Assembly: GCF_058153355.1 (NCBI RefSeq)
Contig: NZ_CM177019.1
DNA: 64,000 nt
Strand: one strand, 5' to 3'
Of this stretch, positions 6,573 through 58,535 are shown piece by piece. The notes below the pieces were generated by a model. The model ran no database searches. It was not told the origin of the DNA and saw nothing but the letters and a program-made list of their open reading frames with translations. Made by a program: the position numbers and the translations under genes. Positions within the stretch are counted from its first letter, which is position 1. Every line of letters begins with the position of its first letter.

Positions 6573-6798
6573 CGACTAAAAACCTCTTTGCGTCACATTT
6601 TTACAACAATTATTGCAGAGAAGATTAATGCCATTGGATTGAAGAAAGTGAGGAATGGTTAAACTGGCTAACCCGAATGACGAAAAATTCTGGAAAACAG
6701 CACGCTATTTCGTGAAGTGATTATTTTCGTCCCTAAGGAAACCTCATAGGATGCTCACGGGTGCCTGAGACTTTCTGTTTTCAGGCTAACCGGGAATC

Positions 6799-6846
6799 AG
6801 AAAGACGAAGGCCCCGACCGATATTTCTATCAACCGAGGCCAACGA

Positions 6847-6858
<12 letters not shown>
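6799..6858 (-). ncRNA. sokB: SokB antisense RNA (antitoxin of hokB); ends approximate
   Basis: antisense to mokB start region; candidate promoter TTGCCG-N17-TAACAT on minus strand inside mokB 5' end; hairpin and U-rich tail; coordinates inferred. Confidence 0.35.
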
Positions 6859-7054
<196 letters not shown>

Positions 7055-7299: not shown

Positions 7300-7543
7300 A
7301 TAACCTCCATGATTTATCGAATCTTATGTTCGATTTGAACGTTATACGCTGGTTTATTTTGATACCGTTGATGAGATCAAAGATCGGGTGAATTGATTAA
7401 AGATAAGCCAGATGGACATATGGACAAGGATTATGGTTTTATTTGTCATACAAATAAATATAATAGGCGCTTCCGATGTAGGCCCGTATTCTTCGCCTGT
7501 ACCACGGGTCGGTTTTAGTACAGGCGTTTTCTTTAAATATCCT

Positions 7544-40961: not shown

Positions 40962-40990
40962 ATGCTCTGGATAAGGATTATCCAATTCTA

Positions 40991-41099
40991 AAAAAAAGCC
41001 CGAACGACTGTTCGGGCTTGTCTTCTTATATGTTGGAAAATCAGTGGCAATGCAATGGCCCAACAGAAAATAAAATCTGTGACAATAAAGGCATATAAC
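40991..41099 (-). ncRNA. micC: MicC sRNA (Hfq-dependent repressor of ompC/ompD)
   Basis: minus strand reads GTTATATGCCTTTATTGTCACAGATTTTATTTTCTGTTGGGCCATTGCATTGCC...GCCCGAACAGTCGTTCGGGCTTTTTTTT, recognised as MicC; terminator shared with ydbK. Confidence 0.85.
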
Positions 41100-41326
41100 C
41101 CGCGCAGAATAACGTATAGCAAATTAAAAGTATAATTTTTATTTTGTATGTATTATCTTCGATACATTCACCAGACTTATTATCATTTCAGAGGAATTAT
41201 TTGATTAAGGTTTTACTTAAGGCGTAACAAATGATATTTATCGGCTAACTGAACTTCTCCTTTAGGATGTTTTCATTCCCCGAAATGGGGATAAAAGGCA
41301 AATAAAATAACTAAAGGATTTATTCA

Positions 41327-42460
41327 ATGAAAAGCAAAGTACTGGCACTTTTAATTCCTGCCCTGCTCGCCGCAGGTGCTGCACATGCAGCCGAAGTTTA
41401 TAATAAAGACGGCAACAAATTAGATCTGTATGGCAAAGTTGATGGCCTGCATTATTTTTCTGATAATTCAGCGAAAGATGGCGACCAGAGCTATGCGCGT
41501 CTGGGTTTTAAAGGCGAAACCCAAATTAACGATCAACTTACTGGCTACGGTCAATGGGAATACAATATTCAGGCAAACAACACTGAATCTTCAAAAAACC
41601 AGTCATGGACCCGTCTGGCATTTGCCGGACTGAAATTTGCAGATTACGGTTCTTTCGATTACGGACGTAATTATGGCGTAATGTACGACATCGAAGGCTG
41701 GACCGATATGCTGCCTGAATTTGGCGGTGACTCTTATACCAATGCAGACAACTTTATGACTGGTCGTGCCAATGGCGTCGCGACTTATCGTAACACTGAT
41801 TTCTTCGGTCTGGTAAATGGTCTGAACTTCGCGGTGCAGTATCAAGGTAACAACGAAGGAGCCAGTAATGGTCAGGAAGGCACCAACAACGGACGTGATG
41901 TTCGCCATGAAAACGGTGACGGCTGGGGTCTTTCCACAACATATGATTTAGGCATGGGCTTTAGCGCTGGTGCGGCATACACCTCTTCTGACCGCACCAA
42001 TGACCAGGTTAACCATACTGCGGCTGGTGGTGATAAAGCAGACGCGTGGACTGCTGGGCTAAAATACGATGCTAACAATATTTACCTGGCAACCATGTAT
42101 TCAGAAACGCGTAATATGACCCCGTTTGGCGACAGCGATTATGCTGTTGCAAACAAAACCCAGAACTTTGAAGTCACTGCACAGTACCAGTTTGATTTTG
42201 GTCTGCGTCCGGCAGTCTCTTTCCTGATGTCTAAAGGCCGTGACCTGCACGCTACCGGTGGTGCAGACAACCCGGCAGGTGTTGATGATAAAGATCTTGT
42301 AAAATACGCCGATGTTGGCGCGACTTACTATTTCAATAAAAATATGTCCACTTATGTTGACTATAAAATCAACCTGTTGGATGAAGATGACAGTTTCTAT
42401 GCTGCTAACGGCATCTCTACCGATGATATTGTCGCTTTAGGTCTGGTTTATCAGTTCTAA
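41327..42460 (+). CDS. ompN: outer membrane porin N
   Basis: 377-aa ORF with signal peptide and porin C-terminus (...VALGLVYQF); matches OmpN. Confidence 0.95.
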
Positions 42461-42468
42461 ATCCTCCT

Positions 42469-42493
42469 GCCCGCTGTTATGGCGGGCTTTTTC
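42469..42493 (+). terminator. rho-independent terminator of ompN
   Basis: GCCCGC-TGTTATG-GCGGGC hairpin followed by TTTTTC. Confidence 0.65.
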
Positions 42494-42519
42494 TGCTTAT
42501 TCTTCCTCCTTTGATCTAA

Positions 42520-43035
<516 letters not shown>

Positions 43036-43042
43036 CACTAAC

Positions 43043-43067
43043 GCCCGCACATTGCTGCGGGCTTTTT
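43043..43067 (+). terminator. rho-independent terminator of uspF
   Basis: GCCCGCA-CATTGC-TGCGGGC hairpin followed by TTTTT. Confidence 0.65.
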
Positions 43068-43123
43068 GATTCATTTCGCAAATGTGCTGACATTTTCCCC
43101 TCTAATCATTACAATTTAAATTT

Positions 43124-43735
43124 ATGAATTATGCATTGATAATCGCTATTATAATATCGTTCCCCTGTGCATTATTATCAGTTTTTCTGGTATTAAAAGA
43201 CTGGGCGCTAATAGGAGATGCAATGAACCACGCAATGTTTCCTGGCATAGTTCTAGCCTGGATTATAGGTATGCCGCTGGGAATTGGTGCATTTATTGTA
43301 GGACTGTCTTGTGCAATTGCAACTGGCTATCTGAAAGATAATAGCATCATAAAGAAAGATACCATTATAGGTATCGTTTTTTCAGGAATTTTTGTCTTGA
43401 CTATCAACAGGCACAAGTCAGCGGATTACAGATATCATTATTACATTACGGTTTACTCTGCATGGTATCGCCTACCATTTTTGCCACATTAAAAGCAGTC
43501 GGAATTATTCTGTCTATATACTATTAATAGCTCCAGGGTCTATTGCTGTCCTCATCACGCATCGCTTTCATAAGACATTACTTATCGCCGTAACGATATC
43601 AATAACAATATCAGGCGTATGGTTATTATATTTTCTCGACAGAGCCCCAGCGCCGACAATCGTCCTCTTATTTGCTGTAGCATTTCTTTTCGCGCTTATA
43701 ATAATCAATTTTCGGAAACAATAATCTCAACAGTA
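43124..43735 (+). pseudogene. decayed ABC-3 family (Mn/Zn/Fe) transporter permease gene, frameshifted and internally truncated
   Basis: frame of 43124..43492 encodes an ABC-3 permease-like N-terminus (DAMNHAMFPGIVLAW, TIIGIVFSGIFVLTI); permease-like C-terminus (LLIAPGSIAVLITHRFHKTLLIAVTISITISGVWLLYFLDRAPAPTIVLLFAVAFLF) continues in another frame to stop at 43733..43735; AT-rich. Confidence 0.5.
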
Positions 43736-44991
43736 GAATAAAGAGGCAAATCAATCATTACATATATAAGATGGTGCTAATATTGCACCGCCTTTAAATT
43801 GAACTTTATCCTTTCACCCTTACACAATTTAAGGAATGCAGATGACTATTTTATCAGCACCCAGCCTTTTTCCTGGTAATCGAAAACTTGAAAATCATTA
43901 ACTCTAAGAAATTCTGCCAAATCGTTGAAATTACTTTAAATTAGACTCGAACAAATCAACCCCTGATGGGGCTTTTACTTATCCATTTAATCGGGTATAT
44001 ATCGACCTCCATCTGCCCGCCTCAGATTCGTACCTGGTGGAGGTCTTTTTTCGTTACCTCTTTCCCCCTTTAGTTCAGTATAAAATCATCAAACTAATGC
44101 TGTTCACACTATTTACCTCCAGCATTCTATATAAATAATAGAAATAAAAACCCCAATACATAGTGCATTGGCATGACCAAACATCAATGCCATTATACTC
44201 GCCTCTGTTAAATACTCGCTAGTTAATATGATAGGCACGCATGATATAACAATCCATATGCTAATACATAAATACACCAGTATTTTTCTCATAGTCAGTC
44301 CCTGTGATTAACAATCAAGGCATAGTTAAGCATATTTCACATTCAAACGTAAACATTATTAATAACATTATGTCAATCGAACTGACATCACGATTCAAGC
44401 CCTCTTCAGACTGAAGGCTAGAGCAGCGTAGAACATTTCAAAACAATACACTGAAAAAATACTTGAACAAAAAACTTAATTCTTTTTTATTGTGAACTTT
44501 AGTAATTTTGTCATGCAACTCTTTATTACATTTAGGCCTATCTTATTTCATGGCAACGCAAATACAGGACCATTTCTTGTGCTATGGATAAGTAATAAGC
44601 TAGTTACATCTTATTAAGAGAACCATTTTCACATATCAAAATATCATCACCACCCACAATGAATTAAGTATTTTTCTTATTCTTTAGATTAGATACGTAA
44701 TGAATCCCTAACTCCATTCGGGTGTCATGGCTCTTTCATTTGAAATACATTCATATCCAATGTAATATTTCTATGCGCAAATATAACTACCGACCATACT
44801 CATCATTTATTACAGAGAATTATTTTATTCACCGAAAAGTTTCACAAAATATCCCCTGATAGAAAACTAAAAAACACTGCATAATATCGCTATTCTGGCA
44901 CTTGCGAAAAATTATATTCTGCACCTGTTGTAGCGTTCTATTTCTCCGCCTGGCAACGAATGCACAATGTCCGCCACAGTTTCTGTTCTAA

Positions 44992-45309
44992 TTTCTTCCT
45001 GTGTTACCGCATCCTGTACGGGTAGCGCAACACCAGCATGCTAAGCAAGGCTTTCCCATCAGATTTCACTACGACTATTTGGGAGCGAGATGGAATGCAG
45101 CAGTAAAACGTGCTGGTATTCGCCGCCGTAATCCGTACCATACGCGACATACTTTTGCCTGCTGGCTGTTGACGGCAGGAGCGAACCCGGCATTTATAGC
45201 CAGCCAGATGGGGCATGAAACTGCGCAGATGGTGTATGAAATTTACGGTATGTGGATTGATGACATGAACGACGAACAGGTAGCTATGTTGAATGCGCGG
45301 TTATCGTAG
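44992..45309 (+). pseudogene. 3' fragment of a tyrosine-recombinase (Rac-type prophage integrase) gene
   Basis: open frame encodes only the integrase C-terminal catalytic region (RRNPYHTRHTFACWLLTAGANPAFIASQMGHETAQMVYEIYGMW) with no N-terminal domains; directly upstream of ttcA where K-12 carries intR. Confidence 0.7.
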
Positions 45310-45360
45310 TTGCAAAGTTTGCCCCCAATTTGCCCCATTTAGTACCAGAGAACTGAAATA

Positions 45361-46296
45361 ATGCAAGAAAATCAAAAGAATACGAAGAAAGAGATATACA
45401 ATCTGAACAAATTACAAAAACGTCTGCGTCGTAACGTGGGCGAAGCCATTGCTGACTTCAATATGATTGAAGAAGGCGATCGCATCATGGTTTGCCTCTC
45501 CGGGGGTAAAGACAGCTATACCATGCTGGAGATTCTGCGCAATTTGCAGCAAAGCGCGCCAATCAATTTTTCGCTGGTGGCTGTTAACCTCGATCAAAAG
45601 CAACCGGGCTTCCCGGAACACGTTCTGCCCGAGTATCTTGAAAAGCTGGGCATTGAGTACAAGATTGTGGAAGAGAACACTTACGGTATCGTGAAAGAGA
45701 AGATTCCGGAGGGCAAAACCACTTGCTCACTGTGTTCTCGTCTTCGTCGCGGAATTCTTTACCGTACCGCAACGGAACTGGGAGCGACGAAGATCGCGCT
45801 GGGTCACCATCGTGACGATATCCTGCAAACGTTGTTCTTAAATATGTTCTACGGCGGCAAGATGAAAGGTATGCCTCCGAAACTGATGAGCGATGATGGC
45901 AAACATATTGTGATTCGTCCGCTGGCCTACTGCCGCGAGAAAGATATTCAGCGCTTTGCCGATGCAAAAGCGTTCCCGATTATTCCTTGCAACCTGTGCG
46001 GTTCACAGCCTAACCTGCAACGTCAGGTGATTGCTGACATGTTGCGTGACTGGGATAAACGTTATCCGGGGCGTATCGAGACGATGTTCAGCGCGATGCA
46101 GAATGTGGTGCCGTCGCATCTGTGCGATACCAACCTGTTCGATTTCAAAGGCATTACCCACGGTTCTGAAGTGGTTAACGGGGGTGATCTGGCGTTTGAT
46201 CGCGAAGAGATCCCTCTACAACCGGCGGGTTGGCAGCCTGAAGAAGATGAAAATCAGTTGGATGAGTTACGACTGAATGTGGTGGAAGTGAAATAA
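45361..46296 (+). CDS. ttcA: tRNA-cytidine(32) 2-sulfurtransferase
   Basis: 311-aa ORF with PP-loop SGGKDS and CxxC motifs; matches TtcA. Confidence 0.95.
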
Positions 46297-46304
46297 CCCG
46301 GATA

Positions 46305-46424: not shown

Positions 46425-47798
46425 TTATTTTAATAACCGCACCCGGCACGTTTTTCCTTTAATTTTACCGCCCTGTAACTGTTTCCATGCTTTATGAGCA
46501 ACAGCCTGACGCACCGCGACATAGACATGCGCCGGATGCACGGCGATTTTGCCAATATCTGCGCCATCAAGCCCGATATCTCCTGTCAGCGCACCTAATA
46601 CATCACCCGGGCGCATTTTGGCTTTTTTCCCGCCATCGATACATAACGTTGCCATTTCTGCTTCCAGCGGCACAATGGAACTATTAACTGGCGGCGTTTG
46701 CCAGTTAAGTTTTATCTGCAACATGTCAGAAATGATATTGGCCCGCTGTGCTTCTTCCGGGGCACAGAAACTGATCGCCAGACCGCTATTTCCTGCACGC
46801 GCTGTACGCCCGATGCGATGTACATGAACTTCAGGGTCCCACGCCAGTTCAAAGTTCACTACCAGCTCAAGCGATTTAATATCAAGACCACGCGCAGCAA
46901 CATCCGTCGCAACCAGCACACGAGCGCTACCGTTAGCAAAACGTACCAGGGTCTGATCGCGGTCACGTTGCTCCAGATCGCCATGTAACGACAATGCACT
47001 TTGCCCTATGTCATTCAGCGCGTCGCAGACAGCCTGACAATCTTTTTTGGTATTGCAAAACACCACGCAAGAGGATGGCTGATGCAAACTTAATAACCGT
47101 TGCAACAGCGGAATTTTGCCTTTGCTGGATGTCTCATAAAATTGTTGTTCAATGGGAGGCAGAGCATCTGTTGAGTCAATTTCAATCGCCAATGGATCGC
47201 GTTGAACTCGTCCGCTGATTGCGGTGATGGCTTCCGGCCAGGTTGCCGAAAACAGAAGCGTCTGTCGAGATGCTGGCGCAAAACGGATAACATCATCAAT
47301 GGCATCGCTAAATCCCATATCCAGCATGCGATCGGCTTCATCCATCACCAGCATATTCAACGCATCCAGTGATACCGTGCCTTTTTGCAGATGGTCCAGC
47401 AAACGCCCCGGGGTTGCCACGATAATATGCGGCGCATGTTGCAACGAATCACGCTGCATACCGAACGGTTGACCACCGCACAAAGTCAAAATTTTGGTAT
47501 TTGGCAGAAAACGCGCCAGCCGACGCAATTCACCTGCCACCTGATCCGCCAGTTCACGCGTAGGGCACAGCACTAAAGCCTGGGTCTGAAATAGCGACGC
47601 ATCAACTTTCTGTAGCAGCCCGAGGCCAAAAGCCGCCGTTTTGCCGCTGCCGGTTTTCGCCTGCACGCGAACATCTTTTCCGGCAAGGATCGCCGGAAGC
47701 GCGGCAGCCTGCACCGGCGTCATAGTTAAATAACCCAACTCATTAAGGTTCGTGAGTTGGGCGGGAGGCAAAACATTCAGGGTAGAAAAAGCGGTCAC
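46425..47798 (-). CDS. dbpA: ATP-dependent RNA helicase DbpA (DEAD-box, 23S rRNA-specific)
   Basis: 457-aa ORF with AKTGSGKT Walker A and DEAD motif (MDEADRM); matches DbpA. Confidence 0.95.
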   Translation of the reverse strand: MTAFSTLNVLPPAQLTNLNELGYLTMTPVQAAALPAILAGKDVRVQAKTGSGKTAAFGLGLLQKVDASLFQTQALVLCPTRELADQVAGELRRLARFLPNTKILTLCGGQPFGMQRDSLQHAPHIIVATPGRLLDHLQKGTVSLDALNMLVMDEADRMLDMGFSDAIDDVIRFAPASRQTLLFSATWPEAITAISGRVQRDPLAIEIDSTDALPPIEQQFYETSSKGKIPLLQRLLSLHQPSSCVVFCNTKKDCQAVCDALNDIGQSALSLHGDLEQRDRDQTLVRFANGSARVLVATDVAARGLDIKSLELVVNFELAWDPEVHVHRIGRTARAGNSGLAISFCAPEEAQRANIISDMLQIKLNWQTPPVNSSIVPLEAEMATLCIDGGKKAKMRPGDVLGALTGDIGLDGADIGKIAVHPAHVYVAVRQAVAHKAWKQLQGGKIKGKTCRVRLLK

Positions 47799-47828
47799 AA
47801 TCTGTTCTCGTGGTCATCGACGCAAAAA

Positions 47829-48002
47829 TTAGCAAGCGCGTATCCTCGCAGATCTACGCTCACGATGCGACAATTTAATCGGTTCTTCATCGGGTGGTGG
47901 GTCAGGCATGGGTTGCGGGCGAGGGATTGGATCGGGCACTGGAACAGGATCGCCAGGAATCGGTTCAGGGACAGGAATTTGCAAATAAATGAGTGTCGTC
48001 AT
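47829..48002 (-). CDS. candidate small proline-rich protein (57 aa)
   Basis: ORF MTTLIYLQIPVPEPIPGDPVPVPDPIPRPQPMPDPPPDEEPIKLSHRERRSARIRAC with strong SD (GGAGGG, 5-nt spacer); below ORF-track cutoff, translated by hand. Confidence 0.3.
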   Translation of the reverse strand: MTTLIYLQIPVPEPIPGDPVPVPDPIPRPQPMPDPPPDEEPIKLSHRERRSARIRAC

Positions 48003-48059
48003 ATTTCCCTCCGGTCATTGGGTGGACTCTTAAAGGGTAGACGCTGATATATAACAGGC

Positions 48060-48181
48060 AAAAAAAAGCCGACTCATCAAAGTCGGCGTCGTACGAATCA
48101 ATTGTGCTATGCAGTAATTCAAAAAAGGAAGTAAGACAATATGGAGCGCAACGCCCATCGCTTGACGTTGCATTCACCTGC
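48060..48181 (-). ncRNA. fnrS: FnrS sRNA (FNR-activated, Hfq-dependent)
   Basis: minus strand reads GCAGGTGAATGCAACGTCAAGCGATGGGCGTTGCGCTCCATATTGTCTTACTTCCTTTTTTGAATTACTGCATAGCAC...GCCGACTTTGATGAGTCGGCTTTTTTTT, recognised as FnrS with intrinsic terminator. Confidence 0.85.
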
Positions 48182-48216
48182 AAGAGAGATATTGCCCTGA
48201 ATGGGTAGAGAGTTTA

Positions 48217-48230
48217 TTGACTTCGCTCAA
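48217..48230. promoter_or_regulatory. putative FNR binding site of the fnrS promoter
   Basis: TTGACttcgCTCAA matches FNR consensus TTGATnnnnATCAA at 8/10 positions, centred about 42 bp upstream of the inferred fnrS 5' end. Confidence 0.5.
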
Positions 48231-48276
48231 ACTTTGCGGCGTTTTTGTATACAGACCGCCGGAAAAATTGCTTTTG

Positions 48277-49281
<1,005 letters not shown>

Positions 49282-51557: not shown

Positions 51558-51651
51558 ACCGGCGCAGAGGAGACCATGCCGGATTTAAGACGCGGATGCA
51601 CTGCTGTGTGTACTGTAGAGTCTGGCGGATGTCGACAGACTCTATTTTTTT
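51558..51651 (+). ncRNA. mcaS: McaS sRNA (IsrA)
   Basis: ACCGGCGCAGAGGAGACCATGCCGGATTTAAGACGCGGATGCACTGCTGTGTGTACTGTAGAGTCTGGCGGATGTCGACAGACTCTATTTTTTT recognised as McaS; terminal hairpin plus T7; between smrA and abgR. Confidence 0.7.
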
Positions 51652-51659
51652 ATGCAGTT

Positions 51660-57588: not shown

Positions 57589-57782
57589 ACATTAAACAAT
57601 TTGTGCCAGCTTGTTCACACTTTTATGTAAAGTTACCCTTAATAACTTAAGGGTTTTCAAATAGATAGACATATATTTACATCTAATATCGGAATTCTCT
57701 GCTGTTAAGGTTTGCTTAGACTTACTTGCTCCCTAAAAAGATGTTAAAATTGACAAATATCAATTACGGCTTGAGCAGACCT

Positions 57783-58535
57783 ATGATCCCGGAAAAGCGA
57801 ATTATACGGCGCATTCAGTCTGGCGGTTGTGCTATCCATTGCCAGGATTGCAGCATCAGCCAGCTTTGCATCCCGTTCACACTCAACGAACATGAGCTTG
57901 ATCAGCTTGATAATATCATTGAGCGAAAGAAGCCTATTCAGAAAGGCCAGACGCTGTTTAAGGCTGGTGATGAACTTAAATCGCTTTATGCCATCCGCTC
58001 CGGTACGATTAAAAGTTATACCATTACTGAGCAAGGCGACGAGCAAATCACTGGTTTCCATTTAGCTGGTGACCTGGTGGGATTTGATGCCATCGGCAGC
58101 GCTCATCACCCGAGCTTCGCGCAGGCGCTGGAAACCTCGATGGTATGTGAAATTCCGTTCGAAACGCTGGACGATTTGTCCGGTAAAATGCCGAATCTGC
58201 GTCAGCAGATGATGCGTCTGATGAGCGGTGAAATCAAAGGCGATCAGGACATGATCCTGCTGTTGTCGAAGAAAAATGCCGAGGAGCGTCTGGCTGCATT
58301 CATCTACAACCTGTCCCGTCGTTTTGCCCAACGCGGCTTCTCCCCTCGTGAATTCCGCCTGACGATGACTCGTGGCGATATCGGTAACTATCTGGGCCTG
58401 ACGGTAGAAACCATCAGCCGTCTGCTGGGTCGCTTCCAGAAAAGCGGTATGCTGGCAGTCAAAGGTAAATACATCACCATCGAAAATAACGATGCGCTGG
58501 CCCAGCTTGCTGGTCATACGCGTAACGTTGCCTGA
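57783..58535 (+). CDS. fnr: fumarate/nitrate reduction transcriptional regulator FNR
   Basis: ORF opens at 57726; conserved 250-aa product starts at [29 protein letters not shown] with N-terminal Cys cluster and C-terminal HTH. Confidence 0.95.

Follow-up and report, generated by a model that had tools for sequence, protein, structure and literature searches.

An Escherichia coli fnrS locus matching that of K-12, with an FNR box in the class II position

We analyzed a window of 64,000 nt of DNA (NCBI RefSeq assembly GCF_058153355.1, contig NZ_CM177019.1), in which positions 48060..48230, read on the minus strand, are almost certainly the E. coli chromosomal fnrS gene with a class II FNR-dependent promoter. 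This interval extends exactly from the last terminator U of the small RNA to the upstream edge of an FNR-type palindrome. The fnrS gene, its FNR site at -42.5, and its co-activation by ArcA were already known from work published in 2010–2013, and the locus is known in every respect that we tested, this copy being the same as the one studied in K-12. In our own analysis, we identified the gene and its promoter elements, located the box, assessed conservation across species, and found fnr in the window; for FNR and ArcA occupancy, anaerobic induction, and targets, we draw on the literature. By analogy, fnrS of this strain would be expected to behave like that of K-12.

The gene specifies a 122-nt small regulatory RNA and occupies 48060..48181 on the minus strand, with its 5′ G at 48181 and its last U at 48060. 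The Rfam model for FnrS (RF01796) matched 48064..48181 on the minus strand at 134.8 bits (gathering score 60, E=5.5e-25) over its full length (model positions 1-119 of 119), and the match was recovered again when the whole window was scanned with Rfam. In the alignment, all 122 nt were the same as annotated b4699 of K-12 MG1655, whose record gives fnrS as a 122-nt ncRNA with zntB on one side and ynaL on the other. The sequence-only reading had proposed alignment with the K-12 fnrS promoter as a check; the two sequences were the same from -75 through nine bases past the terminator U-tract, and we place fnrS at 48060..48181 because of this identity across the annotated b4699. The copy in the window also equals the consensus of 76 Enterobacterales sequences, among which the RNA is conserved over its entire length. 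Its RF01796 score, K-12 orthology, U-tailed intrinsic terminator, and conserved pairing regions all mark it as a member of the FnrS family. Of 5426 complete E. coli genomes, 5392 carried one copy of promoter and gene together (186 nt), with at least 99% identity in 4999 of the 5392. K-12 carries an ncRNA feature at this position, and none of 12 genomes among the matches listed had a RefSeq feature under the fnrS match; fnrS has apparently been left out of most RefSeq E. coli annotations.

The MFE and centroid folds of FnrS contain four elements and agree with the Rfam structure line. A 5′ stem-loop (nt 10-35, 48147..48172, minus strand) appears in both folds, in the Rfam structure line, and among the alifold pairs, and a second stem-loop (nt 62-87, 48095..48120, minus strand) appears in the fold and in the Rfam structure line. 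The intrinsic terminator (48060..48087, minus strand), which had been placed on this strand along with FnrS before any database was consulted, was found there by the terminator scan; it consists of a hairpin at 48068..48087 (nt 95-114), with an 8-bp GC-rich stem from 48087 to 48068, followed by eight T residues (U8 in the RNA, 48060..48067). In sRNAs of this class, a terminator with a U tail serves as the module for Hfq binding. Two pairs of the terminator stem covary across species (AU 33/GC 29 and CG 52/UA 20). The energy of the single-sequence fold was not significant compared to shuffles (z = -1.67), and of the expected structure RNAalifold, applied to a MAFFT alignment, returned just the 5′ hairpin and a portion of the terminator; the Rfam model is better structural evidence than single-sequence or alifold folding.

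The segments outside the stems include the published target-pairing regions. The extreme 5′ end (nt 1-9, 48173..48181, minus strand), one of two such regions and the site of the fnrS-III mutant, is invariant in the 76 sequences. The C/U-rich linker CUUACUUCCUUUUUUG (nt 47-62, 48120..48135, minus strand) separates the two hairpins as a single strand in the Rfam structure line, and the single-sequence fold leaves 10 of its 16 nt unpaired; at least 90% of the 76 sequences share nt 47-50, 52-53, 58-60, and 62, and the other six positions vary more. Read from the sequence, UUCCU in the linker is complementary to the Shine-Dalgarno element AGGAA, which makes the linker a putative anti-Shine-Dalgarno-like seed and fits the published Hfq-dependent pairing at ribosome-binding sites. 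As quoted in PMC8595263, the Durand & Storz mutants are fnrS-I (U57A/U58G/U59A), fnrS-II (C47A/U48A/U49G), and fnrS-III (G4C/G5U), and the conserved 5′ end and linker match the sites of these mutations. The literature, as quoted by later papers, describes Hfq-dependent pairing of FnrS through two separate regions, with targets that include sodB, gpmA, folE, and marA.

For a cross-species comparison, the conserved 5′-hairpin pattern was scanned against one genome per bacterial species, yielding 120 loci, of which 98 carry the 5′ end GCAGGTGAA; of these, 96 extend 100 nt or more upstream, and 94 of the 96 are distinct. The 22 pattern matches from outside the Enterobacterales, which have neither the GCAGGTGAA 5′ end nor any box, were discarded as chance. 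The 94 loci include Escherichia, Citrobacter, Enterobacter, Serratia, Yersinia, Pantoea, Erwinia, Dickeya, Pectobacterium, Edwardsiella, Hafnia, Photorhabdus, and Arsenophonus, among others.

We took the transcription start (+1, G at 48181, minus strand) from the K-12 annotation and the literature, relying on quotations in later papers for the results of Durand & Storz 2010 and Boysen et al. 2010. An earlier concern was that the 5′ end might be mapped elsewhere, which would shift the palindrome away from its claimed position. G48181 fits four published values, namely the K-12 annotation, the numbering of the Durand & Storz mutants, the -42.5 of Myers 2013, and the ArcA coordinates -155..-102 of Park 2013. 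Counted from G48181, G4/G5, C47U48U49, and U57-59, as quoted for the mutants, land on exactly those bases. The four sources may derive from one original 5′-end mapping. Across species, every one of the 94 loci has G at +1 and C or T at -1. Transcription usually starts at a purine preceded by a pyrimidine at -1, and the conserved G after C or T fits this preference.

The palindrome upstream of this start is TTGAGcgaaGTCAA on the minus strand and TTGACTTCGCTCAA on the plus strand (48217..48230). As the FNR box TTGAGCGAAGTCAA of the minus strand, it spans -49..-36 and overlaps the -35 region; it matches the consensus TTGAT-N4-ATCAA at 8 of 10 positions, and its core TTGA-N6-TCAA is intact. Its center at 48223.5 lies at -42.5 from G48181, in accord with the sequence-only reading, which put an FNR-like palindrome some 42 bp ahead of the 5′ end; that reading had also named a position of about -41.5, and a class II-like site does lie near there, but its exact center is -42.5, not -41.5. 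In 92/94 loci, the 14-mer at -49..-36 agrees with the FNR consensus at 8 or 9 of 10 positions and the box is centered at -42.5; in the other 2, the center is at -41.5. Within the half-sites, T-48 and A-36 are invariant, and G-47, T-39, C-38, and A-37 are present in 92/94 loci. For fnrS, Table 1 of Myers et al. 2013 (PMC3688515) gives a single FNR site, at -42.5, together with a peak in FNR ChIP-seq, and the same study found higher sigma-70 occupancy at fnrS in the absence of O2; the ChIP-seq peak belongs to a K-12 sequence that is the same as that of the window.

Downstream of the box, A-12 and T-8 are present in 92/94 loci, G-14 and C-13 are near-invariant as well, and these bases stand at a fixed distance. 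From this spacing, we infer that CAATAT (-13..-8, 48189..48194, minus strand) is the -10 element. The spacer from -30 to -19 is almost without information in the 94 loci, positions -35..-30 are weakly conserved, and no TTGACA-like -35 signal was found among them. A consensus scan found no sigma-70 consensus promoter in 47800..48400, which we attribute to an activator-dependent promoter that lacks a -35 element rather than to absence of a promoter. Judged by its bases, the footprint is that of a promoter whose -35 element is replaced by an activator site. In a textbook class II promoter, the activator site is centered at -41.5 and the -10 element lies at -12..-7. The -10 hexamer begins 29.5 bp downstream of the center of the fnrS box, the spacing that is canonical for class II; the nominal center is -42.5 rather than -41.5 because 7 nt, not 6, separate the predicted -10 hexamer from +1. 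Thus, taking CAATAT as the -10 element, the geometry of the fnrS promoter is canonical class II, and the class II-like architecture first suggested for it holds in the overlap of the box with the -35 region, the 29.5-bp distance, and the lack of a -35 hexamer. An inverted repeat, its position, the missing -35 hexamer, and an fnr gene encoded in the same window are the class II FNR features found here, and the cross-species footprint illustrates a class II activator-dependent promoter with textbook clarity. An A-tract at -64..-61 (48242..48245, minus strand), with A in 73-87 of the 94 loci, is also kept at a fixed distance from +1, and its flanks are not conserved; the alpha-CTD of the polymerase may dock there at a set distance, or the tract may belong to a further regulator's site. 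A CpxR motif near the fnrS promoter has been proposed (PMC8313858).

As a bare motif match, the box is unremarkable. With up to two mismatches, TTGATNNNNATCAA occurs at 59 sites in the window compared to 43.1 ± 6.8 in shuffles, and the strict core TTGA-N6-TCAA occurs 4 times compared to 1.7 ± 1.2, a count reached by 10 of 100 shuffles; neither is clearly enriched in the window. Two of the four strict cores lie within long ORFs, and the others are those of the fnrS and fnr promoters. These frequencies are what would speak for the palindrome being a chance near-match to the FNR consensus, with fnrS driven by something else. Because the motif match is weak as a significance test, our argument rests on position and conservation, and the position of the box is far beyond chance: the same box recurs at the same distance from +1 in 92/94 species loci although the adjoining spacer varies, FNR occupies a K-12 sequence with the same letters (PMC3688515), and the fnrS promoter has no alternative -35 element. 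Conservation effectively refutes the chance explanation, and we give it next to no credence. Binding mainly by CRP or another regulator of the CRP/FNR family, instead of FNR, is also very improbable. CRP and FNR sites are related (TGTGA-N6-TCACA and TTGAT-N4-ATCAA, respectively), one species, of Rosenbergiella, has a GTGA left half-site, and Durand & Storz reportedly saw an effect of CRP on FnrS levels. However, the box in the window has TTGA and TCAA, not the CRP half-sites TGTGA-N6-TCACA; TCA is followed by A, giving TCAA and not TCAC, in 94/94 loci; and the base before TGA (-49) is T in 74, C in 16, A in 3, and G in 1, so that TTGA or CTGA, not GTGA, is found in 90/94. By these letters, the discriminating bases of the fnrS box are FNR-type, not CRP-type, and we consider the CRP reading of the box to be ruled out by them; the published FNR occupancy of K-12 fnrS (PMC3688515) likewise argues for FNR.

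The other alternatives concern the RNA itself. FnrS might also, or mainly, be processed from read-through zntB transcripts, as a 3′-UTR-derived sRNA would be. The zntB gene lies on the same strand 70-139 nt upstream in the 90 loci in which its 3′ end is fully aligned, and a terminator-like site was found between the zntB stop codon and fnrS +1 in only 3 of these 90, compared to 87/90 in which the same scan detected the fnrS terminator. In the window, the gap contains no minus-strand terminator and no stable structure, and zntB transcripts may end at the fnrS terminator. Against processing, the invariant 5′ end is immediately preceded by an activator-type promoter that is complete and conserved, with a purine at +1 following a pyrimidine at -1; published work treats FnrS as FNR-activated from its own promoter; and zntB transcription may terminate by a Rho-dependent route. 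We regard processing as an improbable account of FnrS. A broader proposal, that zntB lacks its own terminator and forms a co-transcript with fnrS from which an FnrS-like RNA is processed as a second, FNR-independent source, seems rather unlikely. If true, a zntB–fnrS co-transcript would be expected aerobically or in zinc-related conditions, and it would explain why the 70-139 nt spacing is kept across Enterobacterales. A full-text literature search for zntB and fnrS returned no paper on their co-transcription, the only match being a Yersinia sRNA survey. The chance that a 47-codon ATG ORF (48030..48173, minus strand) encodes a small protein is close to nil. This ORF is in the ORF list and opens at nt 9 of the RNA behind an AGGUGA, but that AGGUGA abuts the AUG with zero spacing, the ORF passes through the terminator and thus leaves the 122-nt RNA without a stop codon, and linker indels of 1 and 2 nt shift the frame between close relatives. 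We rejected both this and a 72-codon ORF overlapping fnrS as coding sequences on the grounds of frameshifting indels among relatives and of read-through of the terminator.

Transcription of fnrS from its own FNR-activated promoter also calls for the activator, and the fnr gene (57783..58535, plus strand) lies in the same window, 9.6 kb from fnrS, as a 250-aa ORF that is annotated fnr in the nearest genome. Its product retains E209, S212, and R213 for DNA recognition and Cys20/23/29/122 as cluster ligands, and differs from that of the nearest genome by one substitution, G107A; fnr is intact in the window. The fnr promoter has an FNR box of its own, TTGACAAATATCAA (57750..57763), which matches the consensus at 9 of 10 positions and lies 20 nt before the start codon. 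We take it to be, probably, the known autoregulatory site at which FNR represses. Upstream of fnrS, a predicted ArcA array of four direct repeats (-155..-102, 48283..48336, minus strand) sits in the 3′ end of zntB, among its last codons. Park et al. 2013 (PMC3798270) predicted this four-repeat site at -155..-102 of fnrS, with a low-scoring PWM match of 9.1 bits, and ArcA is described there as a co-activator of fnrS; the 54-nt sequence in the Park 2013 supplement is unchanged in the window, and its published coordinates fit a +1 at 48181.

These elements suggest the following sequence of events, which is established for the same K-12 sequence. In the absence of oxygen, FNR would gain its [4Fe-4S] cluster and dimerize. 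The dimer would bind TTGAGcgaaGTCAA at -42.5, stand in for the -35 element, and recruit RNA polymerase to the weak -10 hexamer CAATAT, with ArcA, bound further upstream (-155..-102), as co-activator. Transcription from G48181 to the hairpin and U8 terminator would yield the 122-nt Hfq-binding RNA, whose 5′ end and C/U-rich linker would pair with ribosome-binding regions and repress mRNAs of enzymes not needed anaerobically. FnrS would in this way widen the FNR regulon to genes without an FNR site.

On the minus strand, the end of zntB is followed by the gap with TTGAGCGAAGTCAA, the RNA beginning GCAGGTGAATGC at 48181, the terminator, a 57-codon ORF, and a 457-codon ORF (46425..47798, minus strand, from the ORF list). 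By ORF and annotation, zntB comprises 327 codons (48277..49260, minus strand) with its stop codon at 48279..48277, 95 nt ahead of fnrS +1, and the FNR box lies within this gap; the 57-codon ORF is the proline-rich gene ynaL (47829..48002, minus strand; product beginning MTTLIYLQIPVPEPIPGDPVPVPDPIPRPQPMPDPPPDEE). Among the species loci, zntB is upstream on the same strand in 92/98, and the distance from its last sense codon to fnrS +1 is most commonly 98 nt (39/90 loci). Downstream, dbpA is found in about 29 of 98 loci, mostly Enterobacteriaceae, and is missing at several loci despite ample downstream sequence. Similarity to ynaL was detectable in only 12/98 loci, suggesting a young or fast-evolving gene. 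Thus, the conserved anchor of fnrS across species is zntB, not dbpA. The idea that fnrS anchors a zntB–dbpA intergenic region therefore survives in part: zntB does flank fnrS, but ynaL lies between fnrS and dbpA, and dbpA is poorly conserved at the locus.

Within E. coli, the 701-nt surroundings occur once in 5393/5426 complete genomes, with zntB, ynaL, and dbpA annotated. This 701-nt region is 98.6% identical to that of most genomes, and only two reach 99% identity or more, which points to a sparsely sampled lineage as the source of the window. Six matches of the E. coli collection fell on records labelled plasmids. Further Rfam matches above the gathering score were MicC (40982..41102, minus strand, 124.4 bits), McaS (51558..51653, plus strand, 117.0 bits), RydC (7470..7533, plus strand, 90.5 bits), and the sok antitoxin RNA of a hok/sok locus (6759..6910, plus strand, 114.0 bits). 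In the nearest genome, ttcA is directly followed by uspF, ompN, and nifJ (ydbK), and in the window MicC is only about 7 kb from fnrS (about 41000..46300 region); this arrangement implies that no prophage lies next to ttcA. K-12 carries the Rac prophage there. On the fnr side of the nearest genome, the abgT/abgR region consists of pseudogene fragments, with an AraC/HlyD/MFS cluster beside it.

As a discovery, the locus carries little weight, because it is already published and the copy is the same as the one studied. It is a reliable landmark that places the window on the E. coli chromosome in the zntB-dbpA-ttcA region, and it serves as a positive control in which a small RNA and its regulatory site could be recognized from raw sequence.

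The closest known system is FnrS of K-12 MG1655 (b4699; RF01796), which has the same 122-nt RNA, FNR box, -10 element, and ArcA array and the same neighbors zntB, ynaL, and dbpA. Compared to the K-12 locus, the flanks differ only by single bases, at 48257 (-76) and at two positions past the terminator, whereas the surrounding chromosome differs. Other class II FNR promoters resemble that of fnrS in having a single site over the -35 region, no -35 hexamer, a weak -10 element, and the 29.5-bp distance. In Table 1 of Myers 2013 (PMC3688515), the class II sites of narK, nrfA, caiF, and bssR are at -41.5 and that of ydhY is at -42.5; fnrS differs from the class II examples in its nominal center of -42.5 and in specifying a regulatory RNA instead of an mRNA. 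The box of the fnr promoter, TTGACAAATATCAA, would serve the same protein and has the same core TTGA-N6-TCAA as the fnrS box, but is closer to the consensus (9/10 compared to 8/10).
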